Part shown: one piece after another, positions 43,681 to 61,863 of the stretch
Numbering within the stretch: position 1 is the first letter of the stretch
How the letters are laid out: each line of letters begins with the position of its first letter
Virus record (IMG/VR): IMGVR_UViG_3300018080_000099
Coordinates: 192,001-256,000 of that record
Reading direction: 5' to 3' (one strand)
From: a virus
Length of the DNA stretch: 64,000 nucleotides
Notes under the pieces: generated by a model
What the model was told of the DNA's origin: nothing
Databases searched by the model: none
Seen by the model: only the letters and a program-made list of their open reading frames with translations
Translations under genes and position numbers: made by a program

Positions 43681-43688
43681 TATAAATA
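43681..43688 (+). promoter_or_regulatory. TATAAATA motif upstream of the HNH gene
   Basis: Exact motif 19 nt upstream of the 43707 ATG. Confidence 0.25.
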
Positions 43689-44549: not shown

Positions 44550-45129
44550 AATGAAAAATCCTTTTTGGGTAGCGAGCGATTGTCATTGGTATCATACTAA
44601 TATTATTAAGTATTGCCAAAGACCTTTTACTAATGAAGGCGACCTTGACGATTCAGGTAACTGGATTTCAGAAGAAGTTGCTCAGAAAAGCACCGAGCTT
44701 ATGAACGAGACAATGTTCAATAATTGGCAGAGCCTAATCGGAGAAAAAGACAAGGTTTTCTTTTTGGGCGACTGGGTTATTGGTGCTGAGAATAAATACA
44801 AAACAGGTCAGATACTCCACGACCAACTGCATGGGCGCAAAATTTTCATTCAGGGAAACCACGACGAACACATCCACAGGTTCACGAACATCCGAGTTAT
44901 CGACGGAACTATTCAGGTTAGTTACAAAGGCCTGAACTTCATGATGTCACATGAGCCTATTTGGGAACACTCCCCAGACATTGACATCTATATCTGTGGA
45001 CATATACATAACAATGAGGAAAACGAAAGACTGTTGCCTAATATGATAAATGTATCAATGGAGATGACAGACTACAAGCCTGTCCACATTGATGCCATCA
45101 TTGAGAAAGTAGGAGTGCAACATGATTAG
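44533..45129 (+). CDS. calcineurin-like metallophosphoesterase
   Basis: SDCHWYH, GDWV, GNHDEH and CGHIHN are metallophosphatase motifs. Alternative start at 44551 (MKNPFW). Confidence 0.6.
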   Translation: MLLKVKMKNPFWVASDCHWYHTNIIKYCQRPFTNEGDLDDSGNWISEEVAQKSTELMNETMFNNWQSLIGEKDKVFFLGDWVIGAENKYKTGQILHDQLHGRKIFIQGNHDEHIHRFTNIRVIDGTIQVSYKGLNFMMSHEPIWEHSPDIDIYICGHIHNNEENERLLPNMINVSMEMTDYKPVHIDAIIEKVGVQHD

Positions 45130-45904
45130 GTTTCTTACAGGTTGGTCAAATCCCGGCGGCTCAACAGTCGCCTTCATTAACTTGGTCAACGCACTGAACA
45201 AATATGGACACGAATCTATCCTCGGAGGCCCTCACACATGGCACTTAGATAAGTGTAAATCCGAACAGGTAGTGCGCGGCAATAAGCTATTAGTCCATAA
45301 AGATGACATCATTGTAGCACATTACATGAGAATCTTTGTGGCTCGCCCGCCTGTGAAAGGATTCTTCTTGTCGAGCCAAGAGCAGGAATTTTTTCCACTG
45401 AATACAATTGACTACGGCATCTTTGATAAGATACACTACGTCAGTGAACATCATAAAGATTTTCATGGCATTGCCGGGCATCCCCACTTCATTATCCCGA
45501 ACATTTTAGAAGACCTAAAACCCAATAGTAAGCCAACTAAAAAGATTGGTGGCATTATTGGCACGATTGACAAAAGCAAAAGAGTTAGTACTTGTATCAA
45601 GGAAGCTCTTGAAGATGGATGTGACAAGGTTCTTATCTACGGAATGGTTTCAGACCCGTGGTACTGGCAGGATAAAATAACCAAGATGATTGACGGAAGG
45701 AAAGTCCAGTATATGGGATTTGAGGATGACAAGCAAAAAATGTACGATTCAGTTACCGATGTCTACGCAGGCTTTGATGTTCGGGGAAATGTGGAAGGCG
45801 AGTGCAATCTCACTGAAACAAACTTCCACGGGCAGTCTTTCCGAAAGGAAGAATTGGACAAGAAGTCTATTGTCAAAAGATGGGTGAAGGAGTTGGGAGT
45901 ATAA
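45122..45904 (+). CDS. putative glycosyltransferase
   Basis: 260 aa ORF heading the glycan cluster. No family-specific motif recognised. Confidence 0.3.
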   Translation: MIRFLTGWSNPGGSTVAFINLVNALNKYGHESILGGPHTWHLDKCKSEQVVRGNKLLVHKDDIIVAHYMRIFVARPPVKGFFLSSQEQEFFPLNTIDYGIFDKIHYVSEHHKDFHGIAGHPHFIIPNILEDLKPNSKPTKKIGGIIGTIDKSKRVSTCIKEALEDGCDKVLIYGMVSDPWYWQDKITKMIDGRKVQYMGFEDDKQKMYDSVTDVYAGFDVRGNVEGECNLTETNFHGQSFRKEELDKKSIVKRWVKELGV

Positions 45905-46593
45905 TGGACAAAATATCTGTCATTATCCCATGCTACAATCATGGGAAGCATTTAAGGGAAGCGATTGAATCGCTGTATTCCAACTGGCTGACGATTGAGA
46001 TGGATGTGATGGTTATTGATGATTGTAGTACTGACGATTCTTTTGAGGTTGCTCAAAAGCTTTCAAAGGAATTTGGATTCAAGACTCATCAGATGTCAAA
46101 GAACTCAAAGCCTGCAAAGGTTCGAAACACAGCAATCGGGATGATTGATGGAAACATTATTGTCTGCTTAGACGGTGATGATAAGTTACCCCCTCATTAC
46201 CTTCAAGAGAATTACAACAACATTCTCATGTATCAAGTTGACGTTTCGTATAACAACTCCGTGATGTTCGGCTCAACGAACCGGGAGTTGAATTGGCCTG
46301 AGTTTAACATTGAGACGCTTAGAAGAACCCCTTTCATTCATTGTACTTCAATGTTTCGAAAGGAAGCATGGGAGAAGGTTGGAGGGTTTGATGAGTCAAT
46401 GGTAGACGGCTGGGAAGATTATGATTTCTGGCTGAGAGTTGCCAATGCAGGATTTAAGTTCAAGAAATGTAATCAGACGTTTCTTTACTACCGACAAAGT
46501 GGTAATGAAAATAGAGATGTACAAGCCAAGGCGAAGCTTGATAAAATTCGTGCTTATATGAGAAACAAACACAAAGGGTTTTACTTGGGGTGA
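45904..46593 (+). CDS. family 2 glycosyltransferase
   Basis: MDKISVIIPCYNHGKHL...VIDDCSTDDS is the GT2 signature. TAATG overlap. Confidence 0.7.
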   Translation: MDKISVIIPCYNHGKHLREAIESLYSNWLTIEMDVMVIDDCSTDDSFEVAQKLSKEFGFKTHQMSKNSKPAKVRNTAIGMIDGNIIVCLDGDDKLPPHYLQENYNNILMYQVDVSYNNSVMFGSTNRELNWPEFNIETLRRTPFIHCTSMFRKEAWEKVGGFDESMVDGWEDYDFWLRVANAGFKFKKCNQTFLYYRQSGNENRDVQAKAKLDKIRAYMRNKHKGFYLG

Positions 46594-46610
46594 GTATGAA
46601 AGAGAATAAA

Positions 46611-47351
46611 ATGAAAGTCGTTATTCCAGTGTACAACGCCGAAAAGTGGATTCAGAAATGTATCTGGTCTTTGTACAATCAGTCTTATCAGAACTGGGAA
46701 GCCGTTATTGTCAATGATGCGTCAACTGACAAGACGCTGGATGTTATTAAGGATTTCATGAAAGACATTCCAGCTGAAGAGGTTCACAAAAAGAAAAGGT
46801 TCCGTGTCCTTGACAGAACCATGAATGTAGGAGCCCTTGAAAATATCGACTATGGTACGGAGCTACTCTGTGACGATGATGAGGACGTAGTTGTGCTGTT
46901 GGACGGCGATGACTGGCTGGCGGCAAATGATGTCCTGACACATCTGAACGAACTGTATCAAGATGAAACTTGGCTAACCTACGGACAGTTTCAGTTCAAT
47001 AGTAACGGAAACATTTCAAGTAACCGACAGATAACCGACACCCGAACGTATAGAACGAAGCAGTCATTTTGTTCCTCACATTTGCGAACATATAAGTATA
47101 AGATATGGAAACGCATAAAGAAGGACGACCTTAAGAATGGTGCCGGTAAGTATTATCCGATGGCATGGGATTTGTCCATCATGTACCCATTGATTGAGAT
47201 GGCCGGACCAAAAAGAATCAAGTGTGCTGATAAGGTGATGTACATTTACAATAACCAGAATCCAATCAACGACCATAAGAAAAACTACAAGCTCCAAGTG
47301 AGCTTAGACTTTGAAATCAGAAAGAAGCCACAGTACGCAGAACTACCATGA
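46611..47351 (+). CDS. family 2 glycosyltransferase
   Basis: MKVVIPVYNAEKWI...VIVNDASTDKT. Alternative starts at 46596 or 46590 (GTG). Confidence 0.65.
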   Translation: MKVVIPVYNAEKWIQKCIWSLYNQSYQNWEAVIVNDASTDKTLDVIKDFMKDIPAEEVHKKKRFRVLDRTMNVGALENIDYGTELLCDDDEDVVVLLDGDDWLAANDVLTHLNELYQDETWLTYGQFQFNSNGNISSNRQITDTRTYRTKQSFCSSHLRTYKYKIWKRIKKDDLKNGAGKYYPMAWDLSIMYPLIEMAGPKRIKCADKVMYIYNNQNPINDHKKNYKLQVSLDFEIRKKPQYAELP

Positions 47352-48421
47352 AAGTTATTATCAACAGAAGCGGCGGTCCCTTAAAAATCCCAGAAATCAG
47401 AAAAGAGATTCCGTGGGATGGGAAGCAGTACATACTTAACGATATTCTGACTAACAAGTATCGCAAATACTTGGAGGTTGTCGATGTAGACAAACAAAAA
47501 GAGATTGAGGACTTGCAAGTTAAGGTCAGAGATTTGAAGGTTAATCTTGACAATACCATGATGGAAAACGACAAGCTCCAAGATTTCATTGGCAAGCTTC
47601 GTGACAATACAAAGATTCCTTGTTTGGACTTCTTGTATTCATTCCACTTCAACGAAAATATGGACGAGGCAGTTGAAAGACTGAGATGTTCCATTGAAAG
47701 CATACGGCACCAGAATGTTCGTGTCTGTGTTTGCAATACTTCCAAAAAGAGTATCAAAAGCAAGCTCCGTGGGCTGGGAAAGATTGCATATTTTCATAAT
47801 CCTTTGGAGCTGAATGTTTACAACAAGCCCAAGACAATCAATCTAGGAGTTAAGAAACTTGTCAAGACAGACTACTTCTTTCTCTCAGACATTGATTTGT
47901 ACTACCATCCGGACTTCGTTGCCAACATGGGAGTTGTTCTAAAGCTGACTGGGAATGTTCCTTACAGGATTGTTTTTCATAACAACAACATGGGACCCGG
48001 AGATTATCCTGAAAGTATTGAGGACTGTCACAATCTTTTCACAAACTCCAAAGATACCTCGAGGTCAATGAAGGGATTGGCACCGGGCAACGGATTAATT
48101 TACCGTCCTTCTTTTGAAGCCATTGAGGGGTTTGATGAAATGTATGTAGGGTACGGCCCAGAGGACGCGGACTTCAATTATAGAATCCGCAAGATATGTG
48201 AGTACATAGAAATAGATTTGGAAGGCTTCAACACGTATCATCTTTTCCATGCGAACCAAACTAGAGACTCACAAGAGTACGCTAACAATAGAATCAGATG
48301 TGACTACATGATGAAAATGGATAGAAAGAATAACTACAACATCATAAAGTCCGGGCAGATTGAACCGCCCAGAAAGCTAAAGTTTGTTATAGACGAGAAC
48401 ATTCGGGAAGTGGTAATATGA
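47348..48421 (+). CDS. glycosyltransferase with a beta4GalT-type (GT7-like) motif and an N-terminal coiled coil
   Basis: FLSDIDLYY DXD-like. EGFDEMYVGYGPEDADFNYRI resembles the GWGGEDDDxxxR block. Confidence 0.45.
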   Translation: MKVIINRSGGPLKIPEIRKEIPWDGKQYILNDILTNKYRKYLEVVDVDKQKEIEDLQVKVRDLKVNLDNTMMENDKLQDFIGKLRDNTKIPCLDFLYSFHFNENMDEAVERLRCSIESIRHQNVRVCVCNTSKKSIKSKLRGLGKIAYFHNPLELNVYNKPKTINLGVKKLVKTDYFFLSDIDLYYHPDFVANMGVVLKLTGNVPYRIVFHNNNMGPGDYPESIEDCHNLFTNSKDTSRSMKGLAPGNGLIYRPSFEAIEGFDEMYVGYGPEDADFNYRIRKICEYIEIDLEGFNTYHLFHANQTRDSQEYANNRIRCDYMMKMDRKNNYNIIKSGQIEPPRKLKFVIDENIREVVI

Positions 48422-49185
48422 TTATTCCAATGCTAAAAGGTGGAGTGGGAAACCAACTATTCCAAATTGCATGTGCATATGCTTATGCGAAAAAGCATGG
48501 CACAGACTTTGCCATTAACTATAGCCTGAGCTTTTGTCCTAATCAGGGATTTTCAGCACCCAAATACAAGGACACGCTTTTCAAGAACATATCTGTCACA
48601 ACAGTACATCCTCATAAAATCATGAAGGAGAACGGGAACGCCTACCGAGAACTTCCATTTCTTGAAGGCGACTTCATTTTGGATGGGTTCTTTCAGTCTG
48701 AGAAGTTCTTTGCGGATTGTGTAGACGAGATTAAAGAACTGTTTGTGTTCCCTGAAAATGTCAAGAGCGCTGTAGACAAATTCATGAAGGTAAAACTAAG
48801 TACGCCATCCAATCATCCCATTGCCGGAGTTCATATTCGAAGGGGAGACTACAAAAAATTCAGTCACGAATATATTCTCAATGGTTCGGAATACTACTTA
48901 GCCGCCGCCAAGCATCTGCCGGGTTTTGTGTCAGTGGTTTGTACAGACGACTGGAGTTCAGTGAGTAAGGAAATGACATTTGCCAAAGCCGAGAAGTCAC
49001 CATTCACAGACGAGGTTCACGACCTTTACCTTCTTTCCCAGTGTGATGCAGTTGTCATGTGTAACAGCAGTTTCTCATGGTGGGCGGCATTTCTTGGCAA
49101 AGATAAGAAGGTCATTGCTCCGAACAACTGGTTTGTCCACAAGTCCGCAGAGGACATGTATTGTAAGGATTGGATAAGAATATGA
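48418..49185 (+). CDS. alpha-1,2-fucosyltransferase (GT11)
   Basis: GGVGNQLFQIACAYAYA matches GT11 motif I (LGNQMFQYAFA). Size and the FFQSEKFF block are consistent. Confidence 0.7.
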   Translation: MIIPMLKGGVGNQLFQIACAYAYAKKHGTDFAINYSLSFCPNQGFSAPKYKDTLFKNISVTTVHPHKIMKENGNAYRELPFLEGDFILDGFFQSEKFFADCVDEIKELFVFPENVKSAVDKFMKVKLSTPSNHPIAGVHIRRGDYKKFSHEYILNGSEYYLAAAKHLPGFVSVVCTDDWSSVSKEMTFAKAEKSPFTDEVHDLYLLSQCDAVVMCNSSFSWWAAFLGKDKKVIAPNNWFVHKSAEDMYCKDWIRI

Positions 49186-50015
49186 TGGAAGTGAAAATAG
49201 TTGATAGGAACTTCGCTCACGCATATCTATTTGGCAACGGAGACTTGAAGATGTCTGCCAAAGAGATGCAGTGGTATAGGGGCAATGATGCGAGAGACAT
49301 TTGCTTTTTTACAGACATGACTCTGGGAGAAGTGAATAACTTTCAACTTCCACGGAGCCGTATCAATGTGGCATGGCTTTTGGAACCACCTTCAGTTGCT
49401 TTACAAACGTACAATTGGATTAAGTCAAATTACGAGTTCTTTGACTACGTTTTGACTTACAACAAGGAGTTGCTTTCGATTTCACCTAAGTTCAAATGGT
49501 ATCCACACGGCGGCTGTTGGATTTATCCTAAGGACTGGAAAGTCCATCGGAAGTCCAAAGACGTTTCCATGATTGCTTCCAACAAGAACTTTACAGCTGG
49601 ACATCGTTTGAGACATGATGTGATGAATCGGCTCGGTAGTAACATAGACTTAGTATGTGGACGAGGGCATAAACCCTTTGAATACAAACTCGATGTTTTG
49701 AAAGATTATAGATACTCCATAGTCATAGAGAATGGCAGATACGAAACATACTTCACAGAGAAGCTTATAGACTGCTTCATGACCGGAACAGTTCCGATTT
49801 ATTGGGGATGTTCGCTTAAGGGTTTGTTTGAGGAAGGCGGCATCTTGTACTTCGAAACAATAGATGAGCTACAAGAAATTCTGAGGAAAATCCGTGAGGG
49901 TGAGATTGATTATGACAAGATGCTTTGTTCGGTGTACTACAATGTCAAAGTCGCAGAACGATATGCAATAACTGAGAACTGGATTTACGAGAACTTCATA
50001 AAGAGGATAGTATGA
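49182..50015 (+). CDS. alpha-1,3/4-fucosyltransferase-like (GT10)
   Basis: YRYSIVIENGRYETYFTEKLIDCFMTGTVPIYWG matches the GT10 motif FYLAFENS...Y(I/V)TEK...G(A/T)VPVV. ATG at 49182 chosen over the upstream TTG. Confidence 0.6.
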   Translation: MMEVKIVDRNFAHAYLFGNGDLKMSAKEMQWYRGNDARDICFFTDMTLGEVNNFQLPRSRINVAWLLEPPSVALQTYNWIKSNYEFFDYVLTYNKELLSISPKFKWYPHGGCWIYPKDWKVHRKSKDVSMIASNKNFTAGHRLRHDVMNRLGSNIDLVCGRGHKPFEYKLDVLKDYRYSIVIENGRYETYFTEKLIDCFMTGTVPIYWGCSLKGLFEEGGILYFETIDELQEILRKIREGEIDYDKMLCSVYYNVKVAERYAITENWIYENFIKRIV

Positions 50016-54875: not shown

Positions 54876-55530
54876 CTACACTGATTTGATTTATCCGGAT
54901 GAAGTCAATCTTTATCCGGCGAAGTTGTGCAAGTACATTCATCAAAGATTCTTTGCGGCTGGTGGTAGGATGCTTGACATCGGATGTAGTAAGGGAACCC
55001 ACCTGAAGGAATTTGAAAGACTGGGGCTAGACACATTTGGGGTTGACCTTCGTAAAGACATGGATAGCGATAAGGTATTCGCCTGCAATTTGGAAAATGA
55101 CCCACTGCCATTTGATGACTTCAAATTTGACTTCGTTTGGTCAAAGTCTGTCGTGGAACACATTACGAATGCTGATAATCTTTTGGATGAAATCTATCGA
55201 GTGCTAAAGCCTCGTGGTGTTTGTGTTATTATGACACCGGACTGGGAAAGCCAGATGTCTCACTTCTGGGATGATTACACACATGTAAAGGCTTGGACAG
55301 TCAAAAGTCTACCGAATGCTTTACGAATGCGAGGCATGGATGCCCGATGTGAAAAGTTCTATCAACTACCTTTCGTATGGAAACATCCGTGGCTGAAGAT
55401 TATTCCTAAGGTGGTTTCAGTTTGTCCTCAGTCTTGGAAGTGGAAAGATGATTCAATGTCGAATGGAAATGACAGGAAGCTCATCAGATTTTCTAAGGAA
55501 CAAATGCTTTTAGCTTGGGGTGTGAAATGA
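54868..55530 (+). CDS. class I SAM-dependent methyltransferase
   Basis: RMLDIGCSKGTHL (motif I) and LKPRGVCVI (post-I/II) blocks. Confidence 0.6.
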   Translation: MSNYTDLIYPDEVNLYPAKLCKYIHQRFFAAGGRMLDIGCSKGTHLKEFERLGLDTFGVDLRKDMDSDKVFACNLENDPLPFDDFKFDFVWSKSVVEHITNADNLLDEIYRVLKPRGVCVIMTPDWESQMSHFWDDYTHVKAWTVKSLPNALRMRGMDARCEKFYQLPFVWKHPWLKIIPKVVSVCPQSWKWKDDSMSNGNDRKLIRFSKEQMLLAWGVK

Positions 55531-55817
55531 TAATCAGGGTTGACATAGACGAAACTATATGTGAGAAGGTTGACAATGCCCGGTATCAAGATGCTACGCC
55601 GATACCCGAAAACATCGCCAAGATAAACCAACTATATAATGATGGACACACCATCATCTACTGGACGTCAAGAGGAATGACTACAGGGTTGGATTGGTCT
55701 GCTGTTACGCAAAGACAGCTCGTAGAGTGGGGTTGCAAGTTCAACAAGCTGGAAATGGGTAAGCCTTTCTATGACATGTTGATTTGTGACAAGAGTAAAA
55801 GGATTGAAGAAATATGA
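55527..55817 (+). CDS. small HAD-like hydrolase (tentative)
   Basis: MIIRVDIDETIC start resembles the HAD DxD motif. 96 aa. Confidence 0.3.
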   Translation: MIIRVDIDETICEKVDNARYQDATPIPENIAKINQLYNDGHTIIYWTSRGMTTGLDWSAVTQRQLVEWGCKFNKLEMGKPFYDMLICDKSKRIEEI

Positions 55818-56464
55818 GAAATGCTATCTTGCTCTCATATCCTCGCTGTGGAAATAGCTGGCTGAGATTTTGTGTGGAGTTCCTAAGTCAAAGGAAAACA
55901 ACTCCGAACAGTCCTAATGCTCAGAAGTTTAGGGAATCAGTTGGTTTGGAGTTTGATACTGAGAAGTTTTTGATGTTCAAGTATCATGGCTGGCGAGATG
56001 TGAAGGAGGATTTATCGGACAGCATCATTCTTCTTTTGAGGAACTACAAGGAATGTATTCCGAGACATTGTAGGCGTATCGAAGATGATGCTACATCTCA
56101 TGGGGAAACACACCCACTCAAGTTCAGTTACATTGACAACCTTTTGTACTTTGAGAGGTCGTCATTCAAGAATAAGCATGTTGTCTATTATGAGGATTTG
56201 ATTGTACAACCGATGGTTGTTTTGAGGGACCTACTGAACTTTTTGGATGTTGATGATGGCCGATTGCTGGAGTTCTTTGAGAGGTACGATGAAATAAAGG
56301 ACAAGTCTATTGAAGCTTATAGTGAATCTCAAACTCAGGGCAAGGAAGTATTAGTCCACTCCAAGAAGTTCTCACGGGAAGAAATATTGAAGTTTGATGA
56401 ATTGGTTAAAGCCCAAAGCCCAGAGTGCTATGAAAAATACTTAATCAGATATTATGGGGTTTGA
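55814..56464 (+). CDS. sulfotransferase (second copy)
   Basis: LLSYPRCGNSWLRFCVE resembles the 5'-PSB motif. LLLRNYKECIPR resembles the 3'-PB motif. Confidence 0.5.
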   Translation: MRNAILLSYPRCGNSWLRFCVEFLSQRKTTPNSPNAQKFRESVGLEFDTEKFLMFKYHGWRDVKEDLSDSIILLLRNYKECIPRHCRRIEDDATSHGETHPLKFSYIDNLLYFERSSFKNKHVVYYEDLIVQPMVVLRDLLNFLDVDDGRLLEFFERYDEIKDKSIEAYSESQTQGKEVLVHSKKFSREEILKFDELVKAQSPECYEKYLIRYYGV

Positions 56465-56466
56465 AA

Positions 56467-56799
56467 ATGCAAATTGTAAAGAAGGTATGGGGCGAGGAAC
56501 GATGGTTAGCCAATGCTGACTTTTGTTGTAAGGAGCTTATCCTTGAGAGAGGATTTAGGTGTAGTCTGCACTACCACAAAAAGAAAGATGAACTGTTCTA
56601 TGTTTTGGAAGGACAAGTTTTGCTTGAGATAAACGGAGAAGAGCATGTCTTAAGTCCCGGTGCTTGGTACAGAGTTTACCCTAACGACATCCACCGATTT
56701 AACGGATGGGCTCGCTCCTTAATACTTGAAAGCTCAACACATCACGAAGATGAAGATTCATATAGGATTGAACCTAGTGGGAGGATGTATGAACACTAA
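56467..56799 (+). CDS. cupin-domain protein (sugar isomerase/epimerase-like)
   Basis: KVWGEERWL...HYHKKKDELFYVLEG...HRF is the two-His cupin signature. ATG at 56467. Confidence 0.45.
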   Translation: MQIVKKVWGEERWLANADFCCKELILERGFRCSLHYHKKKDELFYVLEGQVLLEINGEEHVLSPGAWYRVYPNDIHRFNGWARSLILESSTHHEDEDSYRIEPSGRMYEH

Positions 56800-57625
56800 G
56801 CTTGTAGCCGAAATCGGCATCAACCATAATGGCGATATGGAAATCGTCAAGAAGCTTATTGACAATGCCGTTGAAGGCGGATGTCAGTATGTGAAGTTCC
56901 AGAAGAGGACTGTTGAGGATGTTTACACACCGGAAGAACTTGACAAATACCGCGAGTCTCCGTGGGGAACAACCAACCGTCAGCAGAAGATGGGATTGGA
57001 GTTTGGCAAAGATGAGTATGACGAAATAGACGCATATTGCAAAGAGAAGGGGATTGAATGGTTCGCCTCTCCGTGGGATGCCAAATCCGTTGACTTTCTC
57101 ATGGAATACAACCCTCCTTACATCAAAGTTGCTTCGGCAATGGTAACAAACAAACCAATGCTGGAAAAGATTAAGGAAGCAGTTGACGGAACTGATACTA
57201 GAGTTATTGTAGCTGTTGGTATGACAACCGAAGATGAATTGGAAGCTTACTTGGACATCCTTGGTGAATACACGGACTATATTCTTTCATGTACTTCAAG
57301 TTATCCTACACCAGTTGAGGATATGAATATGAATCGTATTAAAACGCTTCAGGATAAGTATGGTCCGTTGTATAACATTGGATTCTCAAACCATTCACAG
57401 GGAATCACTTTCATGCTCATGGCATACTGCCTTGGCGCTAAAATGATTGAGTACCACATCACACTTGACAGAACAATGTACGGAAGCGACCAAGCAGCAT
57501 CCATTGAGACTCCCGGTGTTAGGAGAATCAGAAAGTATCTTGAATCATTTGATAAGGCTTGGGGCAATGGGGCGCTTGGATGTCAGCCTAGTGAAGTTCC
57601 TATCAAGGAGAAGTTGAGAAAATGA
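56789..57625 (+). CDS. nonulosonic acid synthase (NeuB/PseI/LegI family)
   Basis: LVAEIGINHNGDMEIVKKLIDNAVEGGCQYVKFQ is the NeuB-family N-terminal signature. Start at 56789 with RBS gggagga. Confidence 0.75.
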   Translation: MNTKLVAEIGINHNGDMEIVKKLIDNAVEGGCQYVKFQKRTVEDVYTPEELDKYRESPWGTTNRQQKMGLEFGKDEYDEIDAYCKEKGIEWFASPWDAKSVDFLMEYNPPYIKVASAMVTNKPMLEKIKEAVDGTDTRVIVAVGMTTEDELEAYLDILGEYTDYILSCTSSYPTPVEDMNMNRIKTLQDKYGPLYNIGFSNHSQGITFMLMAYCLGAKMIEYHITLDRTMYGSDQAASIETPGVRRIRKYLESFDKAWGNGALGCQPSEVPIKEKLRK

Positions 57626-58494
57626 GAGAGCTGATAATTTTTATGGCCTCCCGAGGCCCAAACATTTTGACTTCAAGGACAACCGAAGCTATTGATTCAA
57701 TCATGAACAACATTGGGATTGAGGACTACGCCTTCTACTTTGTCTTTGACAATGAAGATTACATGAACCACTTCGTTTCCTATGTTCCACCTGAACACAT
57801 TGAGAAAGCTGTTATGTCTCAAGGAACGACATGGGCTCAAATCTTTAACCAGTTCTTTGACGAATACTGCATGACGGATAAGTCACGATACATTCTTGTA
57901 TCACACGATGATGTCATTGCCATGACGAAGAACTTCTATCCAATGACGATGGAAGAAATTTCAGGTTATGAGGACCAAATCGGATGGATAACATACTCAA
58001 GCATAGGCTACTTCCATCAGGACAAACGAACCTCAAACTCTGTGAGAGCTGGATTCTTTAAGGACAGAGGAAAGTTCCCTAGCATTTTTGAGTTCCATTC
58101 CGACATCTTGGACTATCCTACAAGAGCAGTTAGGACGTTCGGACCGTTCACTCACTTCAATTTGGTAAAGACAAGTGCTTTGAAAGAGATTGGTAAGTGT
58201 GAGGACTGGACAGTTGGTGGAGTTCTGACAGACGAGGATTGGTCGCTTGAGTCCTTGATAAAGGGATACTACAATGTGTGGGTGCCGACAGTCCATTACT
58301 TCCATCCCAACAAACCAACCAGACGCATTTATGATACTTTGTCGGATGCTCCACAAGCCCACGAGGGCTTCAGAAATAAGTGGGGATTCGATACACCAAT
58401 ACCATATCAGGAAGCTGACAAGTTGATTGAGAAGTATCCGCACTTGGCAGACTATGCTCACAAGAACTCATACGATTGGATGTACTTAAAATGA
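57622..58494 (+). CDS. putative GT-A-fold glycosyltransferase
   Basis: ILVSHDDVIAM DXD-like motif. 290 aa. Confidence 0.3.
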   Translation: MRELIIFMASRGPNILTSRTTEAIDSIMNNIGIEDYAFYFVFDNEDYMNHFVSYVPPEHIEKAVMSQGTTWAQIFNQFFDEYCMTDKSRYILVSHDDVIAMTKNFYPMTMEEISGYEDQIGWITYSSIGYFHQDKRTSNSVRAGFFKDRGKFPSIFEFHSDILDYPTRAVRTFGPFTHFNLVKTSALKEIGKCEDWTVGGVLTDEDWSLESLIKGYYNVWVPTVHYFHPNKPTRRIYDTLSDAPQAHEGFRNKWGFDTPIPYQEADKLIEKYPHLADYAHKNSYDWMYLK

Positions 58495-58817
58495 ACGAAG
58501 CAAGAATAGAAGATTTTACGCGTGGGTGGTTTGTAGGCGACTTTGACCCCACACTATATAAGACAGGTGATGTTGAAGTTGCCTATAAAACTTACAAAGC
58601 TGGTGACAAAGAAGCCAAACACTATCACAAGATAGCAACCGAGATTTCCATTGTGACTAAGGGAGTCGTCCTGATGAACGGTAAGGAATACCGTAAGGGC
58701 GACATCATTGTTATGGAACCTTACGATGTGGCAGACTTTAGTGTAGTTGAAGATGCTGAGAACATTGTTGTCAAGATTCCCGGTGCTACCAATGACAAGT
58801 ACGAGGTCGAAGAATGA
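58491..58817 (+). CDS. cupin-domain protein
   Basis: Small beta-barrel-like sequence with HYHK...E. Start at in-frame ATG 58491. Confidence 0.35.
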   Translation: MNEARIEDFTRGWFVGDFDPTLYKTGDVEVAYKTYKAGDKEAKHYHKIATEISIVTKGVVLMNGKEYRKGDIIVMEPYDVADFSVVEDAENIVVKIPGATNDKYEVEE

Positions 58818-59263
58818 TTTATATTGCTCACAGGGGAAACATAGACGGCCGGATGCCAGAGGCTGAGAACCATCCAAATCATATAAAGTACGCTTTATTT
58901 GAAGGATATGATGTGGAGATTGACTTCTGGTTAGTCGATGGTAAGATAGTGCTTGGACATGATGAACCCCAGCATGAAGTTGATAAAAGGTTCCTAATCC
59001 ATCCGAACATATGGATTCATGCTAAGAACCCCGAAGCATTTGAAATGATTGTTGGAAACCAACTCAAAGGGTTTTGGCACACGCAAGAGGACTATGCGCT
59101 CACAACGGATGGACATATCTGGGTTTACCCCGGCAACCAACTACTTAAAGATTCAATAGCTGTGCTGCCTGAAACAGTCACGAACTATGGGGTGAGTGAC
59201 TTGCAACAGTGTTTTGCCATTTGTTCCGATGAAGTCAAGAAGTTCAAGGGGTTGCTCCAATGA
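58814..59263 (+). CDS. glycerophosphodiester phosphodiesterase-like protein
   Basis: IAHRGN...E...EIDFWLVDGKIVLGHD is the N-terminal GDPD signature. 149 aa. Confidence 0.45.
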   Translation: MIYIAHRGNIDGRMPEAENHPNHIKYALFEGYDVEIDFWLVDGKIVLGHDEPQHEVDKRFLIHPNIWIHAKNPEAFEMIVGNQLKGFWHTQEDYALTTDGHIWVYPGNQLLKDSIAVLPETVTNYGVSDLQQCFAICSDEVKKFKGLLQ

Positions 59264-59958
59264 ACTTTACATTCGGCATCATCACAAACAAAGGAACTGA
59301 GAAGCGAATCAATACAATCATAGATTCTATTGAAACTCAGAAGATTCCTGAGTACGAAGTCTTGATTGTCGGTTCCGCCAAGATTGAAAGGGAACACACC
59401 AGAGTCATTCCTTTTGATGAGTCTAAGAAGCGTGCATGGATTACCAAGAAGAAGAACATGCTAACTCAAGAAGCTTCATTTGAGAACGTAGTTTACTTGC
59501 ACGACTATATCAAGTTTGAGGAAGGATGGTACGATGGTTTCCTTCAGTTCGGAAATGATTTCAAGGTATGCATGAACGTCATTCAAAACAAAGACGGCTA
59601 CCGATACCGGGACTGGAGTTTGTGGGCTGAAGATTCTCCGAAGATTGGTTTCAAGAAGGGTGAGTGTATTCTTCCTTACTGGGTAAGACACTTGACAAAG
59701 TATATGTATATCTCAGGAGCTTACTGGGTTGCTAAGAAAGATGTCATGGAAGAGTTTCCTTTGGATGAAAAATTGACCTGGGGAGCTGGTGAGGATGTTG
59801 AGTGGTCCAAACGAATCCGAGAGAAGTATGATTTCTCAATGAATGATAAGTCCAAAGTAAAACTCATGAAACAGAAAGCTGTTATTCTAAGAGCCATAAG
59901 TGATAAAAGATACAATGAGGTAATGAACATTGAGAGAGATGGAGAGAAGGAGACTTGA
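59260..59958 (+). CDS. hypothetical protein (possible glycosyltransferase)
   Basis: 232 aa ORF in the glycan cluster. Confidence 0.3.
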   Translation: MNFTFGIITNKGTEKRINTIIDSIETQKIPEYEVLIVGSAKIEREHTRVIPFDESKKRAWITKKKNMLTQEASFENVVYLHDYIKFEEGWYDGFLQFGNDFKVCMNVIQNKDGYRYRDWSLWAEDSPKIGFKKGECILPYWVRHLTKYMYISGAYWVAKKDVMEEFPLDEKLTWGAGEDVEWSKRIREKYDFSMNDKSKVKLMKQKAVILRAISDKRYNEVMNIERDGEKET

Positions 59959-60499
59959 CTTCCACATCCCTGAAAGTGGTTTGATACTGGACATGGGAGG
60001 GTTTTGTGGGCAGTGGACTCAAACGGCATTCAATCACTTTGGGTGTCGTGTTTATGTTATGGAGCCCATTAAGGAGTTCTATGAGAAAATCGTCCAGCGA
60101 TTCCAAGGGAACGACAAGATTGTTCCTTTGAACTTCGGATTGGCAGGGGAGAATACTTCAACCACCATTTATAAGAGTTTGGATGGCTCAAGCATCTTTA
60201 CAAAGAATGGTCCCTCAGAAGTCATTGAGTTGAGAAACGCCAGTGAGTTCATGGAGGAAATGGAGATAAGCTCAGTAGATTTGGCAAATGTCAACGTGGA
60301 GGGTTCGGAGTATGACATTCTCCCAAACCTGATGGAGTCGGGGAAGATTGAAGTTTTCAAGAACATTCAGATACAGTTCCACAAAAACCGAGAAGGTTAT
60401 GTGGAGAAGCGAAAAGCAATACAGGAATCATTAAGTCAGACGCACACACAGATTTGGAACTACGAAATGGCTTGGGAGTGTTGGAGGAGAAATGTCTAA
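59930..60499 (+). CDS. FkbM-family methyltransferase
   Basis: ILDMGGFCGQWT...VYVMEP resembles the FkbM domain. Alternative start at 59939. Confidence 0.5.
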   Translation: MREMERRRLDFHIPESGLILDMGGFCGQWTQTAFNHFGCRVYVMEPIKEFYEKIVQRFQGNDKIVPLNFGLAGENTSTTIYKSLDGSSIFTKNGPSEVIELRNASEFMEEMEISSVDLANVNVEGSEYDILPNLMESGKIEVFKNIQIQFHKNREGYVEKRKAIQESLSQTHTQIWNYEMAWECWRRNV

Positions 60500-61415
60500 G
60501 ATATTGATTACGGGTGCTAAAGGGCTTGTCGGTTCAGCCATTCCAATAAGCATGGATAATGTTTTGCTTGTTCCTAAAAGGTCGGATATGGATTTGATGA
60601 ATGAGCAAGATACTTGGTCATACATTTCATATCACAAGCCGGACTCTGTTATTCATTGTGCCGCTAAGGTTGGTGGGCTTGCAGGGAATATGAATCATAT
60701 GGGAGAGTTCTTTTATGAGAACATGCTAATGACAACTCAGCTCATAGAACTTTGTCGGCAGGCAGGAGTCAAGAAGGTTCTGTCCTTTCTGTCAACCTGT
60801 ATCTTTCCGGACAAAGCTGAATATCCATTGACTGAGGACCAAATACTTCTTGGGCCTCCGCATGAATCCAACTACGGTTACGCATATGCCAAACGCATGA
60901 CGTACATCCAGAGTTGTGCCTATCGTCAACAATATGGAATGAATTGTATCTGTGTTGTGCCGACAAACATCTACGGCCCCAGAGACAACTATGATTTGGA
61001 TAATGGACATGTGCTACCATCTCTCATACACAAATGCTACTTAGCTAAGCAGAACAAGACTGAGTTTGTGGTGTGGGGAAGTGGTGCGCCTTTAAGGGAG
61101 TTCATTTTCTCTGAGGATATTGGTAAGTTAGTATTGAAACTATTGGAGGATTACAATGAGGAAGAACCTATCATCCTTACAACGGGTGATGAAATTCCTA
61201 TCGGGGTGGTTGCTGGACTTGTGGCAAAGGCAATGGGCTACAAAGGCAAAATCAAATTTGATACGAGCAAGCCAGATGGACAATTCCGCAAGCCGTCATC
61301 AAATGCTAAGCTCATGGCTTTATATCCTGATTTCAAGTTCACACCAATAGAGATTGGTATTCAGCGCGCAGTTGATTGGTTTTGCCACAATTATCCAAAC
61401 GTGAGGGGAGCATGA
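60492..61415 (+). CDS. fcl: GDP-L-fucose synthase (GDP-4-keto-6-deoxymannose 3,5-epimerase/4-reductase)
   Basis: ILITGAKGLVGSAI, AAKVGG, YAYAKR, VPTNIYGPRDN, VVWGSGAPLREF and GYKGKIKFDTSKPDG align with recalled E. coli Fcl. Confidence 0.8.
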   Translation: MSKILITGAKGLVGSAIPISMDNVLLVPKRSDMDLMNEQDTWSYISYHKPDSVIHCAAKVGGLAGNMNHMGEFFYENMLMTTQLIELCRQAGVKKVLSFLSTCIFPDKAEYPLTEDQILLGPPHESNYGYAYAKRMTYIQSCAYRQQYGMNCICVVPTNIYGPRDNYDLDNGHVLPSLIHKCYLAKQNKTEFVVWGSGAPLREFIFSEDIGKLVLKLLEDYNEEEPIILTTGDEIPIGVVAGLVAKAMGYKGKIKFDTSKPDGQFRKPSSNAKLMALYPDFKFTPIEIGIQRAVDWFCHNYPNVRGA

Positions 61416-61852
61416 GCCAGTATATTCCTCAGGATAAGTACGACTACATTTTAACGCACATGCCTATTGCTTGTGTGGATGTTTGCATTGTGTCAGAGAA
61501 GGGCATCCTTCTTGTCAAAAGAAACACTGAGCCTGCGAAAGGAACTTGGTGGGTGCCCGGCGGAAGAGTTCACAAAGGAGAAACGTTGAGGGACTGTGCA
61601 TATCGTAAGTGTTTGGAAGAAGTCAACTTACACTGTTCCATTGGACCGATAGTTCATACTGATGAAACGGTATTTGATACAGGGCCATCGGGCATCCCGA
61701 TTCATTCAATCAATGTATGCTTTTTAGCAATCCCTCATACTGCTGATGTCAAGTTAGATGACTACAGTGATAGTCATGCATGGGTACCTCATATAGCTGA
61801 CAATTTCCATCCGTACGTTCGGAAGTGTTTTGAAGGTTGCGGATTCAAATAA
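61412..61852 (+). CDS. Nudix hydrolase, GDP-mannose mannosyl hydrolase-like
   Basis: Nudix box GGRVHKGETLRDCAYRKCLEEVNL. Adjacent to fcl as in gmd-fcl-gmm clusters. Start at in-frame ATG 61412. Confidence 0.6.
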   Translation: MSQYIPQDKYDYILTHMPIACVDVCIVSEKGILLVKRNTEPAKGTWWVPGGRVHKGETLRDCAYRKCLEEVNLHCSIGPIVHTDETVFDTGPSGIPIHSINVCFLAIPHTADVKLDDYSDSHAWVPHIADNFHPYVRKCFEGCGFK

Positions 61853-61863
61853 GTCTTGACAAC

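Follow-up and report, generated by a model that had tools for sequence, protein, structure and literature searches.

What does a phage make with an unbroken 17-kb block of sugar genes, and on what molecule would the product be built? The block lies at 45122-61852 of the window (the whole 64,000-nucleotide stretch analysed here) and consists of 24 + strand ORFs, contiguous and for the most part overlapping, in an uninterrupted string (Table 1). Gene calling on the source contig gives the same layout; the preliminary description, which counted about 22 genes, was right that the island is real. Its carrier is an uncultured 264-kb phage with a gp23-type major capsid protein (MCP), sheath, terminase, baseplate wedge and RegA, and is clearly a T4-like myovirus. 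Our tentative reading, which we hold at somewhat below an even chance, is that a lytic T4-like phage here carries its own glycan assembly line, self-contained and made up of soluble enzymes throughout, with the chain built on a phage structural protein. The gene families, the folds, the synteny and the enriched motif were computed directly; all substrates, the sequence of steps, the late timing of expression and the acceptor are what we infer from them.

Table 1. Genes of the island and two features outside it, with the matches behind each assignment (GA, gathering score).
Feature	Position	Strand	Assignment	Basis
Fibre	27908..29779	+	Fibre-like structural protein, outside island	N-terminal Ser-rich acidic tandem repeat, ~170 aa
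Motif	43681..43688	+	T4-type late-promoter motif TATAAATA	18 nt upstream of ORF 43707
g01	45122..45904	+		260 aa; no match in Pfam, PHROG, PDB-sequence searches
g02	45904..46593	+	GT2 glycosyltransferase	PF00535 3.5e-21; Glyco_transf_7C 2e-6
g03	46590..47351	+	GT2 glycosyltransferase	PF00535 9.1e-25
g04	47348..48421	+	GT-A glycosyltransferase, beta4GalT-type C-terminal motif	PF02709 Glyco_transf_7C 28.4 bits vs GA 23
g05	48418..49185	+	GT11 (alpha-1,2-fucosyltransferase family)	PF01531 9.5e-21
g06	49182..50015	+	GT10-like (alpha-1,3/4-fucosyltransferase family)	PF00852 7.9e-8, 32.6 bits vs GA 23.9
g07	50012..51361	+	Fusion: beta-phosphoglucomutase-like HAD + sugar-1-phosphate nucleotidyltransferase	HAD_2 8e-29; NTP_transf_3 4e-4
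g08	51358..51969	+	Possible sulfotransferase (weak)	Sulfotransfer_3 16.6 bits < GA 27, N-terminal P-loop only
g09	51938..52564	+	SGNH/GDSL-like (possible O-acyl esterase or transferase), weak	Lipase_GDSL_2 24.9 bits < GA 32.9
g10	52561..53316	+	Stand-alone DUF115/MptE-like protein, sialyltransferase-like fold	PF01973 2e-10, 41.1 vs 34.6
g11	53288..53953	+	CMP-nonulosonate (or ulosonate) synthetase	PF02348 CTP_transf_3 3e-25
g12	53946..54875	+	Radical SAM/SPASM enzyme	PF04055 2.8e-21; PF13186 1.1e-15
g13	54868..55530	+	Class I SAM methyltransferase	Methyltransf_23 1.5e-17
g14	55527..55817	+	Small HAD-type phosphatase	PDB 9IQW 'capsule biosynthesis protein' 4e-10; phrog_1238 1e-25
g15	55814..56464	+	Probable sulfotransferase	Sulfotransfer_1 25.1 bits vs GA 22, C-terminal half
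g16	56467..56799	+	Small cupin	Cupin_2 9e-12
g17	56789..57625	+	NeuB-family nonulosonate synthase without C-terminal SAF domain	PF03102 6e-62
g18	57622..58494	+	Predicted GT-A-fold glycosyltransferase	AF2 pLDDT 76, pTM 0.81; Foldseek
g19	58491..58817	+	Cupin-like small protein	phrog_24762 5.6e-42; cupin HxH...E...G motif
g20	58814..59263	+		phrog_34507 7e-28, phrog of unknown function
g21	59260..59958	+		No match in Pfam, PHROG, PDB
g22	59930..60499	+	FkbM-family methyltransferase	PF05050 29.3 bits vs GA 22.7
g23	60492..61415	+	GDP-L-fucose synthase-like epimerase/reductase	Epimerase 2.4e-47; NF047922 Fcl 1.2e-74
g24	61412..61852	+	Nudix hydrolase, GDP-mannose mannosyl hydrolase type	NUDIX 6.5e-15; PDB 1RYA 7e-10

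Profile searches confirm most of the family calls made in the preliminary description, whose enzyme inventory is largely right. Both GT2 proteins, the beta4GalT-type protein (islands L003 and L029 have homologues at 40-41% identity), the GT11 protein and the GT10 C-terminal domain of g06 score above gathering thresholds, as do both domains of the radical SAM/SPASM enzyme and the class I and FkbM methyltransferases. The GT11 protein has GNQLFQ and HIRRGDY motifs and is 31% identical to annotated cyanophage alpha-1,2-fucosyltransferases, and g06 carries the ENGRYETYFTEK motif and shares 37-43% identity with proteins of huge phages and cyanophages. g18 has no match in Pfam, PHROG or PDB-sequence searches; its modelled fold points to a hidden GT-A glycosyltransferase, missed by sequence profiles and by the preliminary description alike. 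The best Foldseek matches are ppGalNAc-T2 (E 1.4e-8, TM 0.62), TarP, SpsA and Mimivirus R699, and they do not separate ppGalNAc-T from TarP/SpsA (E 1.4e-8 vs 1.8e-8); a homologue in L040 sits between DUF115 and NeuA. Together with the DUF115 protein g10, this makes seven supported glycosyltransferases: two GT2, the beta4GalT-like GT-A, GT11, GT10, the hidden GT-A and a CstII-like DUF115. Motifs hint that g21 may be another GT-A candidate, and the syntenic island L029 opens with a homologue of g01 (37% identity).

g10 had been called Maf/CstII-like, and of that pair it is the CstII side that stands. Foldseek on a confident AF2 model (pLDDT 94) returns CstII 1RO7 (E 1e-5) and Maf 5MU5 (E 2e-5) as best matches, whereas the family profile favours CstII (E 8e-6) over Maf (E 0.3); the protein has CstII-like motifs and stands alone, without Maf's flanking domains. 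On both fold and profile its nearer relative of the two is CstII, a lipooligosaccharide (LOS) sialyltransferase, and not Maf, which glycosylates proteins; it is a candidate CMP-nonulosonate transferase. Of the 12 other loci in which we found DUF115, all but L037 have NeuA and NeuB linked to it; in L037 a truncated DUF115 lies on a 9-kb contig without either gene. The linkage is seen in the window, L003, L006, L029, L030/31, L032, L034, L035, L036, L040 and the bacterial L033. By this synteny, the DUF115-NeuA-NeuB module (with cupin, Nudix and HAD genes) is real and conserved; we find it on many large uncultured phage contigs and not in cultured phages. The module occupies the same backbone locus in relatives: the flanks of L034 are homologues of window ORFs w42980 and w62460/w63172, and the L003 island adjoins RegA and a gp19-like gene.

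The calls for a CMP-nonulosonate synthetase, a NeuB-family synthase, a GDP-fucose synthase and a Nudix GDP-mannose mannosyl hydrolase were also sound. At the level of NCBIfam equivalogs, g11 best matches PseF (87 bits, cut-off 205.7) and g17 matches TIGR03569 at 210 bits (cut-off 399.65) over model positions 3-276 of 329; all nonulosonate-pathway proteins miss these cut-offs, so that profiles do not fix the identity of the nonulosonate. Fcl is likewise the best NCBIfam match of g23, over its full length but below the equivalog cut-off (251 bits against 500), and genes of this type recur beside NeuB (L003, L014, L029, L030, L039). In PDB, the best match of g17 is a 290-aa NeuB (6NCS, 3e-32) and that of g24, almost full length, is the E. 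coli GDP-mannose mannosyl hydrolase; in L034 and L040 a NUDIX gene comes immediately after NeuB, and in L030 one stands immediately before DUF115. Of the two cupins described, g16 holds (its PDB matches are small cupins, including 'mannose-6-phosphate isomerase' 7ZVM, 2e-5), and g19 has the cupin motif but no Pfam match. L030 has a cupin fused to NeuB, and in L003, L034 and L040 one stands immediately upstream of NeuB, so that g16 is probably tied to NeuB in function. In the proposed fusion g07 the HAD half is well matched (NCBIfam bPGM family 1e-25) and the nucleotidyltransferase half only weakly (rmlA_long/GlmU-type 1e-11); a homologue at 53% identity adjoins NeuB in L008. The small HAD g14, overlooked in the preliminary description, also matches TIGR01689 weakly, and its type accompanies NeuB in 13 of 22 IMG/VR loci as well as in L030, L038 and L039.

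From these parts the island could make a fucosylated, sialic-acid-like sugar chain, probably methylated and sulfated. In the CMP-nonulosonate branch, the Gmm-like Nudix protein and/or a cupin would yield a hexose or hexose phosphate, the SAF-less NeuB would condense it with PEP, the small HAD would take off the phosphate, if one is present, and the NeuA-like enzyme would activate the nonulosonate with CTP. The acid is most likely deaminated and KDN-like, since an aminotransferase, N-acetyltransferase, 4,6-dehydratase and NeuC are all missing from the island. The GDP-fucose branch would comprise the last, Fcl-like step alone, with Gmd supplied by the host or encoded in another part of the genome: as previously described, gmd is missing, here by tblastn with two Gmd proxies over the window and the next 10 kb (74 kb of the 264-kb contig). 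The fusion g07 would supply an NDP-hexose, and the seven supported transferases would build the oligosaccharide. The beta4GalT-like, GT10, GT11 and CstII-like proteins form an enzyme set of Lewis/sialyl-Lewis type, and the earlier proposal of a fucosylated, nonulosonate-capped, Lewis-type glycan is a fair reading of the inventory, but which linkages are formed, and on which acceptors, does not follow from the families alone.

Tailoring would fall to two methyltransferases, one or two sulfotransferases, the SGNH-like protein and the radical SAM enzyme. Two sulfotransferases had been called, both weakly matched: g15 passes the gathering score with partial coverage, has a PRCGNSW sequence resembling the PAPS-binding loop and has homologues (30-35%) in L003, L029 and L039, whereas g08 falls below, and the L029 gene at its position has the same weak Sulfotransfer_3 match. 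Homologues of g13 (36-40%) occur in L003, L006, L029 and L036; g12 reaches no NCBIfam equivalog, and radical SAM/SPASM genes recur in related islands. The SGNH-like g09, below cut-off and absent from the preliminary description, has a homologue at the same position in L029 (27% identity). A GDPD-like call for g20 is unsupported, with no match in Pfam or PDB.

When might the island be expressed? The window has 18 copies of the putative promoter motif TATAAATA where 2.25 would be expected, an eightfold excess that none of 100 shuffles reached; 17 of the 18 copies are on the + strand and several lie 18-70 nt upstream of structural genes. Sigma-70-like sites are not enriched. ORF 43707, just downstream of one copy, is the first gene of a gap-free string that extends across the island as far as 61852 with no internal terminator, and the island is therefore probably transcribed late, with the virion genes. 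In our preferred reading the acceptor is a phage structural protein that would receive its glycan in the cytoplasm, ahead of assembly, much as happens in mycobacteriophages and giant viruses. PMC12619734 cites glycosylation of phage virions, and glycosylation clusters for giant-virus fibrils have been described (PMC10117803). Concretely, we speculate that the acceptor may be the Ser-rich-repeat fibre protein at 27908-29779 (S+T 31% overall, 36-nt repeats x 9.6), whose C-terminal domain is common to other fibre-like proteins.

The preliminary description had argued for cytoplasmic protein glycosylation from the lack of an export route. The observation holds: every ORF has at most one hydrophobic 19-residue window, that of the DUF115 protein is buried in a confident globular model, and the 24 ORFs include no polytopic protein and no match to lipid-carrier or export families. 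Nor do Pfam tables show an initiating phosphoglycosyltransferase, flippase, polymerase or ABC transporter in any of five other phage-type islands (L029, L030, L032, L034, L040). The inference is weak, however. The characterised enzymes nearest to those of the island, of the CstII, FutC/GT11 and FutA/GT10 types, are soluble and act on lipid-linked LOS/LPS acceptors exported by the host's housekeeping machinery; LOS loci without export genes are normal, so missing export genes are no proof of protein glycosylation.

It is thus also possible, at a chance we put nearer one in three, that the island remodels host LOS/LPS. The affinity of g10 to CstII rather than Maf fits this, as does the bacterial chromosomal cluster L033, which has the same enzyme combination and looks like a surface-polysaccharide locus; late expression would suit receptor masking at lysis too. 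Protein glycosylation of the virion stays viable, and we rank it slightly ahead, though still as a doubtful call, because of the T4-type late promoter motif and the Ser-rich-repeat fibre; the mucin-type polypeptide GalNAc-transferases among the top structural matches of g18 and the lack of lipid-carrier and export genes in the island also lean this way. Against virion decoration, no protein-O-glycosylation initiator (GtfA/B-type GT4, full-length Maf or oligosaccharyltransferase) was recognised, the Ser-rich repeat is missing from all four proteins read that share the fibre's C-terminal domain, no S/T-rich protein was noticed within 10 kb of the other islands except a Thr/Gly repeat in L022/L023, and late expression is read from the motif alone.

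Such an island had been called remarkable for a phage, which overstates the case. Clusters of 24 'LPS' genes have been on record for the T4-like cyanophage P-SSM2 since 2005 (PMC1079782), S-SCSM1 has Gmm, Gmd, Fcl and fucosyltransferases (PMC9602691), and S-SCSM2R has 13 GTs including GT10 and GT11, plus KdsA/KdsB (PMC12801897). Sugar-gene islands in T4-like cyanophages have been known for a long time, and GT11/GT10 glycan islands are common to these cultured phages and ours; the DUF115-NeuA-NeuB module is what cultured phages lack. Among GenBank phage records, 104 carry a GT11 homologue and 20 a GT10-like one.

The sequence lies, in reverse orientation, at around 115-180 kb of a 263,805-bp metagenome contig (ENA ERZ27256796:k141_2651556), and short identical JGI contigs exist. 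Its backbone is that of a T4-like myovirus, with a gp23-type major capsid protein (phrog_138, 4e-85), tail sheath, large terminase and baseplate wedge, and it also encodes a gp19-like protein and the RegA translational repressor. The capsid protein is about 35% identical to its best relatives, which are Kyanoviridae cyanophages, and by megablast neither the island nor the structural region has a DNA-level relative among 50,697 phage records. The island occupies positions 45122-61852, where 24 plus-strand ORFs follow one another, nearly all with overlaps of a few bases, and it is real and well delimited. GC content and GC skew are the same there as in the rest of the window, and thus the island was not acquired recently from a foreign source.

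The gene inventory of the preliminary description is mostly right. Pfam supports two GT2 glycosyltransferases, a Glyco_transf_7C GT-A transferase, a GT11 and a GT10 enzyme, a fusion of HAD_2 and nucleotidyltransferase domains, CTP_transf_3, Radical_SAM with SPASM, class I and FkbM methyltransferases, Cupin_2, NeuB, an SDR epimerase and a Nudix protein. The GT11 protein (g05) scores 74.7 bits against PF01531 (gathering score 23.9, E 9.5e-21), with residues 85-254 aligned to profile positions 123-296. Hallmarks of this family are an N-terminal GxQxFQ-type motif and an HxRRxD motif, and the g05 translation carries GNQLFQ and HIRRGDY; at family level g05 is an alpha-1,2-fucosyltransferase, and alpha-1,2 transfer from GDP-fucose is the predicted activity. 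The GT10 protein (g06) reaches 32.6 bits against PF00852 (gathering score 23.9) and contains the FxxxENxxxxxYxTEK-type motif as IVIENGRYETYFTEK, also given as ENGRYETYFTEK. For the SDR epimerase (g23), the best NCBIfam model is GDP-L-fucose synthase NF047922, matched over its full length at 251.5 bits (E 1e-74); this is by far the best family even though the equivalog cut-off of 500 is missed. Neither the window nor the 10 kb after it encodes a Gmd partner for g23, which bears out the absence reported earlier. The Nudix protein (g24) has as its best PDB match the E. coli GDP-mannose mannosyl hydrolase (1RYA, E 7e-10, query residues 4-126) and scores 43 bits against the NCBIfam Gmm subfamily model, whose cut-off is 146.

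Other assignments had to be revised. Two sulfotransferases had been named, and one of them, g15, passes Pfam (25.1 against 22), over residues 112-188 only, while g08 stays below threshold (16.6 against 27) with a match to the P-loop only. Both carry an N-terminal motif resembling a PAPS-binding loop, and their homologues in L029, a 190-kb scaffold with a related island, show the same weak sulfotransferase matches. We rejected the label "GDPD-like" for 58814-59263 (g20) because no profile supports it; nor does the PDB, where sequence searches with g01, g18, g20 and g21 gave noise or nothing. Three genes had been overlooked: a 96-aa HAD phosphatase (g14, 55527-55817; PDB 9IQW "capsule biosynthesis protein", 4e-10; phrog_1238), an SGNH-like ORF (g09), and g18 (57622-58494), which has no sequence-profile match and whose structural model is a GT-A glycosyltransferase, with Mimivirus R699 among its fold matches. 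In cyanophage S-T4 (MH412654.1), the gene at 16668-17015 is annotated "phosphoheptose isomerase 1", a name shared by phrog_1238, and belongs to the small HAD family of g14 (40% identity; PDB 9IQW); the label is probably a propagated misannotation. A cytidylyltransferase-like protein is encoded at 37609-38262 on the plus strand (PF01467, 24.4 bits; phrog_3041/395), 7 kb upstream of the island and separated from it by genes without sugar-related matches, and the glycan island of S-T4 contains a "cytidyltransferase-related protein".

One gene of the island's acidic-sugar set, g10 at 52561-53316, had been described as Maf/CstII-like. The CstII half of this description holds; the Maf half fails by profile and survives as the second-best fold match. 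The Pfam scan gave PF01973 (MptE-like) only, and the Pfam GT42 model is not matched by g10. As a single sequence, the DUF115 protein returned noise or nothing from the PDB, so that a family profile was needed to reach CstII. That family, a large metagenomic one with 240 matches, consists of stand-alone DUF115 proteins 240-300 aa long and has a nearly invariant YDQRH motif, and its profile matches CstII with E 8e-6, with aligned stretches GPSL, CN and T.G..A..LG..IY.G.D, as against E 0.3 for Maf. The AlphaFold model of g10 (pLDDT 94) likewise has as its best Foldseek match CstII, the Campylobacter lipooligosaccharide (LOS) sialyltransferase (1RO7, E 1e-5, probability 1.00, TM-score 0.48-0.50), followed by the Maf flagellin glycosyltransferase (5MU5, E 2e-5); only these two are significant, and ST8SiaIII and the archaeal MptE kinase come next. 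Maf shares with g10 the MptE-like/DUF115 core (PF01973) and the linkage to NeuB/NeuA-type genes, but its solved chain is 632-666 residues long, whereas g10, at 251 residues, is the core domain only. No flagellar genes are present in the window. We read g10 as a predicted CMP-nonulosonate (CMP-NulO) transferase, most like the enzymes that act on glycan acceptors.

What sugar g10 might transfer is suggested by its neighbors. The NeuB protein (g17) scores 209.7 bits against the NeuB TIM-barrel model PF03102 (E 6e-62) and 210 bits against the equivalog TIGR03569 (cut-off 399.65), where the alignment ends at model position 276 of 329; the 278-aa protein has no C-terminal SAF/antifreeze-like domain, and its best PDB relative, 6NCS, is an equally short NeuB of 290 aa. 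The NeuA-like protein (g11) scores 89.6 bits against PF02348 (CTP_transf_3), and its best NCBIfam model is PseF at 87.2 bits (cut-off 205.7), with KdsB models scoring lower. The NCBIfam equivalogs that would name the NulO (Neu5Ac, Pse, Kdo) all stay below their cut-offs. No epimerase_2-type NeuC was matched among the 24 ORFs, and the island also lacks a 4,6-dehydratase, an aminotransferase and an N-acetyltransferase, all enzymes of amino-sugar routes. The conserved partners of NeuB are instead a cupin, a Gmm-type Nudix protein and a small phosphatase. Because the amino-sugar enzymes are missing, NeuB is SAF-less and its partners are of this kind, the simplest reading of the gene set is that the product would be a deaminated, KDN-like acid. 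In such a pathway, the Nudix enzyme would release mannose from GDP-mannose, analogous to the hydrolysing step of NeuC, LegG and PseG, and the acid would be built from that mannose; alternatively, the cupin might supply a hexose 6-phosphate and the HAD protein strip the phosphate. The acid would then be activated with CTP. The Fcl-like g23 would most simply feed the GT11 and GT10 enzymes, and its recurrent position next to NeuB leaves room for a role in a 9-deoxy NulO branch. The seven supported transferases could assemble a LacNAc/Lewis-like chain capped by the acid; the chain would then be decorated with methyl, sulfate and perhaps acyl substituents. Whichever acceptor is used, the conserved cupin-NeuB-Nudix-HAD arrangement points to a NulO pathway unlike the textbook NeuC/NeuB/NeuA route.

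This module recurs well beyond the present phage. Relatives of the NeuB, 42-66% identical, are found on 22 IMG/VR viral contigs, 13 of which also encode the small HAD; single-protein scans of IMG/VR with the upstream ORF 43707, DUF115 and the fibre C-terminal domain found nothing, and NeuB alone gave loci. The island on L029 is near-syntenic, with NeuB 70% and DUF115 50% identical and the GT-7C, sulfotransferase-like, SGNH-like, methyltransferase, cupin and Fcl-like genes in the same order. A second group (L030 and L031; 135 collection blocks, contigs of up to 190 kb) combines a NUDIX-DUF115-NeuA-NeuB::cupin fusion arrangement with GT10, radical SAM, Fcl-like and Gmd-like genes. In L030 (11610-13082 and 1070-2174), which represents a widely distributed marine contig family, a C-terminal cupin domain fused to NeuB replaces the usual SAF domain, and split transketolase N- and C-terminal genes lie in the same island. 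A 288-kb contig (L032) carries GT10, GT11, GT2, GT-7C, DUF115, NeuA, SPASM and NeuB. In two further loci, L034 and L040, cupin, NeuB and NUDIX genes are consecutive, and L040 also has a carbamoyltransferase and, between DUF115 and NeuA, a homologue of the hidden GT-A g18. Common to the island studied here and those of L030-L032, L034 and L040 is a core of GT10, DUF115, NeuA, NeuB, cupin, SPASM, methyltransferase and Nudix genes. Most of the islands from uncultured large phages, unlike the one in the window, also encode aminotransferases and B12-radical SAM enzymes, a sign of amino-NulO variants. Homologues of the window genes flank the L034 island on either side, and another relative, L003, adjoins RegA and a gp19-like gene; in related phages, the same backbone position is thus taken by an island of variable content around a conserved core. 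Other carriers of the module are the GenBank huge phage LR756508 and the Kyanoviridae single-virus genome AG-345-L05. We found no annotation or published description of uncultured-phage islands with a NulO module. A bacterial chromosomal cluster (L033; Logan SRR8164873_5623, 5154-19353), beside MurB, an XerC-type integrase, PlsY and HiPIP, is a cellular counterpart of the phage island; its gene order is ManC-Gmd-Fcl-acyltransferase (Acyl_transf_3)-DUF115-GT11-NeuB-NeuA-DegT-GT2-GT10, with NeuB as a NeuB::AP_endonuc_2 fusion. A genome-collection scan for the DUF115 subfamily gave three loci only, of one pattern (an Elusimicrobia MAG and two Maricaulis MAG contigs), too small a set to define the family's surroundings in bacteria.

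Against this background, the earlier judgement that the gene set is remarkable for a phage was overstated, as its fucose part is ordinary for T4-like cyanophages. Homologues of the GT11 protein occur in 104 GenBank phage records and GT10-like ones in 20, and the annotated glycan islands of S-SRM01 and S-T4 (11-14 kb) hold GT11, GT10-like, Fcl-like, cupin and small HAD homologues. P-SSM2 has 24 "LPS genes" (PMC1079782), S-SCSM1 encodes Gmm, Gmd, Fcl and fucosyltransferases (PMC9602691), and S-SCSM2R has 13 glycosyltransferases together with KdsA/KdsB, an ulosonic-acid branch (PMC12801897). These "LPS / cell-wall" islands of T4-like cyanomyoviruses share the T4-like backbone and likewise comprise 12-20 kb of soluble glycosyltransferases and nucleotide-sugar enzymes near tail-fibre and baseplate genes; their GT11 and GT10-like proteins are 31-38% identical to those of the window, and Fcl, Gmm, FkbM and class I methyltransferases are common to both. 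What the window island has and they do not is the NeuB/NeuA nine-carbon branch, the CstII-like DUF115 protein, sulfotransferase-like genes and the radical SAM/SPASM enzyme. No DUF115 match was found among 50,697 GenBank phage records, in which NeuB-like proteins occur in only two uncultured phages, a Kyanoviridae single-virus genome and a 484-kb huge phage, and NeuA-like and sulfotransferase-like genes in the 484-kb huge phage only; one Moritella contig was also matched by these searches. There is no PHROG family for NeuB or DUF115, and full-text searching, with most subscription journals outside its coverage, found no paper on NulO genes in phages. We conclude that the island is a variant of known T4-like phage glycan islands, set apart by a conserved and apparently undescribed NulO module with a CstII-like transferase and sulfation candidates. 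Among bacterial systems, the Campylobacter jejuni LOS locus (neuBCA with cstII and GT2/GT-A) follows the same logic of NeuB, CMP-synthetase and CstII-fold transferase, and the Lewis-antigen LPS enzymes of Helicobacter pylori (FutA/B of GT10, FutC of GT11, beta4GalT) are the same set of fucosyltransferases and Gal-transferase-like GT-A. As in the island, all these enzymes are soluble and no flippase is in the locus. The island differs from both in having no NeuC, a SAF-less NeuB and no Pfam GT42 match, in its extra phosphatase, cupin, Nudix, sulfotransferase-like and radical SAM genes, and in being borne by a lytic phage.

The timing of expression can be approached through the T4-type late-promoter motif TATAAATA, which occurs 18 times in the window against 2.25 expected (eightfold), with 17 of the 18 copies on the plus strand (e.g. 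at 2359, 8031, 8051, 10718, 25582, 31428, 42954, 43681 and 62449). For many copies a start codon follows at a distance of 18-70 nt; the motif precedes structural genes, and one copy stands 18 nt upstream of the first gene in the gap-free string that contains the island, where sigma-70-like sites are not enriched. From this pattern, the phage appears to use T4-like late transcription. A further copy lies 105 nt upstream of the DUF115 gene; comparison with relatives says nothing for or against a conserved internal late promoter there, as their GC content is 26-38% and the motif occurs in them by chance, at no fixed position. Directly past the last stop codon of the island, at 61856-61884 on the plus strand, is a near-consensus sigma-70 promoter (TTGACA-17-TATATT, 11/12) overlapping the motif copy at 61864; another transcription unit may begin here.

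Where would such a glycan be attached? We rank decoration of the virion first, tentatively and at somewhat short of an even chance. The preliminary description had inferred protein glycosylation from the lack of visible membrane export machinery. The absence itself is confirmed: no ORF with two or more hydrophobic segments lies in 34166-64000 or the next 10 kb, and no phosphoglycosyltransferase, flippase, polymerase or ABC transporter was matched by Pfam in the island. The inference is weaker than presented, because LOS-type loci and the characterised relatives of the transferases also lack export genes, so that their absence does not discriminate. On the side of the virion are the enrichment of the late motif, its plus-strand bias and its position before both the structural genes and the island string; the absence of any lipid-carrier or export gene from the other phage-type islands with Pfam tables (5 of 5); the size of a 24-gene investment; and the precedents of mycobacteriophages and giant viruses. 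The glycan systems of mycobacteriophage capsids and tail tubes, Mimivirus/Megavirinae fibrils and chlorovirus capsids are likewise virus-encoded soluble clusters without membrane export; they consist of nucleotide-sugar enzymes, GT-A transferases and methyltransferases, and the structural proteins are decorated while in the cytoplasm or viral factory (PMC10117803, PMC12619734), but there is no sequence-level orthology between these clusters and the island. The literature searched holds no report of a NulO, or of a fucosyl/sulfate combination, on a phage virion. Telling against the virion is that the island contains no recognised protein-glycosylation initiator. To our knowledge, T4-like virions have yet to be shown to carry a glycan. 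A candidate acceptor is the fibre-like protein listed in the table, 15 kb upstream of the island, whose repeats resemble Gram-positive Ser-rich and SD-repeat glycoproteins and whose globular C-terminal part is paralogous to ORF 22219-24654. An acceptor-type protein of this kind is one mark of GtfA/B- and SdgA/B-type systems; no Glycos_transf_1/GT4 initiating transferase of those systems was matched in the island. All four fibre homologues inspected lack the Ser-rich repeat and share only the last ~150 residues, and the 10 kb around each of the other islands contain no Ser-rich protein like it, so we regard this fibre as a conserved acceptor only as a lead. A fuller account, which taken jointly we consider rather doubtful, is that uncultured large T4-like or "huge" phages, as a widespread and undescribed group, make their own sialic-acid-like sugar by a non-canonical route, in which the Gmm-type Nudix enzyme would release the hexose, SAF-less NeuB would act with the cupin, and the small HAD would complete the acid; with fucose, methyl and sulfate it would then cap O-glycans on virion fibres such as the Ser-rich one, giving the first NulO-decorated, "sialyl-Lewis-like" phage particles.

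Remodelling of the host envelope is only slightly less probable, and we place it second. Here the substrates of the phage enzymes would be the host's lipid A-core or undecaprenyl-linked intermediates, reached from the cytoplasmic side of the inner membrane; export of the product would fall to host MsbA, Wzx or ABC transporters and a host ligase, and the cell would show a fucosylated, NulO-capped LOS/LPS or capsule, a new surface that could block superinfection, keep progeny off debris or deter grazers. Among characterised proteins, the assignable transferases come closest to LOS/LPS enzymes (the CstII profile match and the GT11 and GT10 families), the small HAD has a match named as a capsule biosynthesis protein, and the bacterial cluster L033 combines the same enzymes chromosomally. 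Campylobacter-type LOS loci normally have no export genes, and their absence from the island is therefore expected if the host is the target. It is also the standard view, in that the literature reads homologous cyanophage clusters in this way (PMC1079782; PMC9602691; PMC12801897), but no T4-like phage is known to offer experimental backing for it. Moreover, 24 genes with at least seven glycosyltransferases are far above the known phage serotype-conversion systems, which include membrane proteins, and the sole enriched promoter motif is a late one, whereas known exclusion functions are early. We think it distinctly unlikely that the island is a mosaic of independent modules with different targets, with GT2, GT11, GT10 and Fcl forming a cyanophage-type surface module and DUF115, NeuA, NeuB, cupin, HAD and Nudix serving another acceptor, brought together only via an insertion hot spot. 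Gene content at the same backbone locus does differ among relatives, cultured cyanophages have GT11 and GT10 without NeuB, many IMG/VR loci have NeuB and the small HAD with few other genes, and the DUF115 gene has its own upstream copy of the late motif; but GT10 and/or GT11 accompany the NulO module in seven loci (L029, L030, L032, L033, L034, L039 and L040), the genes overlap gap-free, and their base composition is that of the rest of the window. Least probable by far is that some or all transferases glycosylate modified phage bases against restriction, like T4 glucosylation or the 5hmC glycans of metagenomic phages. T4-like phages classically glucosylate their DNA, the island enzymes are all soluble, and phage GT-A/GT-B enzymes building DNA glycans are widespread, but such pathways are defined by a neighboring C5-methyltransferase and 5mYOX/TET, or by a ThyS-like hydroxymethylase (10.1101/2023.12.21.572611). 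We rank DNA glycosylation low because none of these families (C5-MT, 5mYOX, TET, ThyS-like) is among the Pfam matches for 34166-62987 or the 10 kb downstream; fucosyltransferase families, a NulO branch and sulfotransferases also have no known precedent on DNA.

The role of large glycan-gene islands in T4-like marine phages has been a standing question since P-SSM2 in 2005 (PMC1079782). To that question the island and its relatives add a nine-carbon acidic sugar branch, a CstII-like transferase and candidates for sulfation and methylation; the nine-carbon, CstII-like and sulfation features are found in no cultured phage and are recurrent across many uncultured large phages. If the glycan is on virions, natural phage particles could bear sialic-acid-like, fucosylated coats, with effects on adsorption, mucus/particle adhesion, grazing, protease resistance and immune recognition. 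If it is on the host, lytic phages would change the antigens of the cell surface far more extensively than known seroconversion does.

Fibre-like and other proteins of the window described in the text
Feature	Position	Strand	Description
Fibre-like protein	27908-29779	+	623 aa; N-terminal ~170 residues are 9.6 tandem copies of a 12-aa Ser-rich acidic SESSSDSSVSES-type unit; 36-nt DNA period
Hyper-acidic protein	35829-37487	+	552 aa, 30% Asp+Glu; EEAPAEEE- and EDVEEA-type tandem repeats; basic C-terminal KPPKK/APKKP repeat
Minus-strand ORF	54-905	-	283 aa; three hydrophobic segments; immediately upstream of the major capsid gene; no Pfam match

Several other proteins drew our attention. The hyper-acidic protein, just after RegA and with a late-promoter motif ahead of it at 35612, has no Pfam or PHROG match. 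The minus-strand ORF beside the capsid gene is one of only three on that strand in the gene list and the sole sizeable one. Several large fibre-like proteins with PKD domains (22219-24654, 29790-31424, P0121-P0124) share a conserved C-terminal ~150 aa (HIGSFYFGP...SAVLL...DFVG.P..G.SPL.V.F) and have otherwise unrelated N-terminal parts, which suggests modular, swappable receptor-binding proteins. On the contig that covers the 10 kb downstream of the window (L025), a PolyA_pol/CCA-adding-type nucleotidyltransferase at 15176-17568 is split into ORFs of 133 and 395 aa, apparently due to a GIY-YIG homing endonuclease gene, and an ART-PolyVal ADP-ribosyltransferase-like gene lies just upstream.
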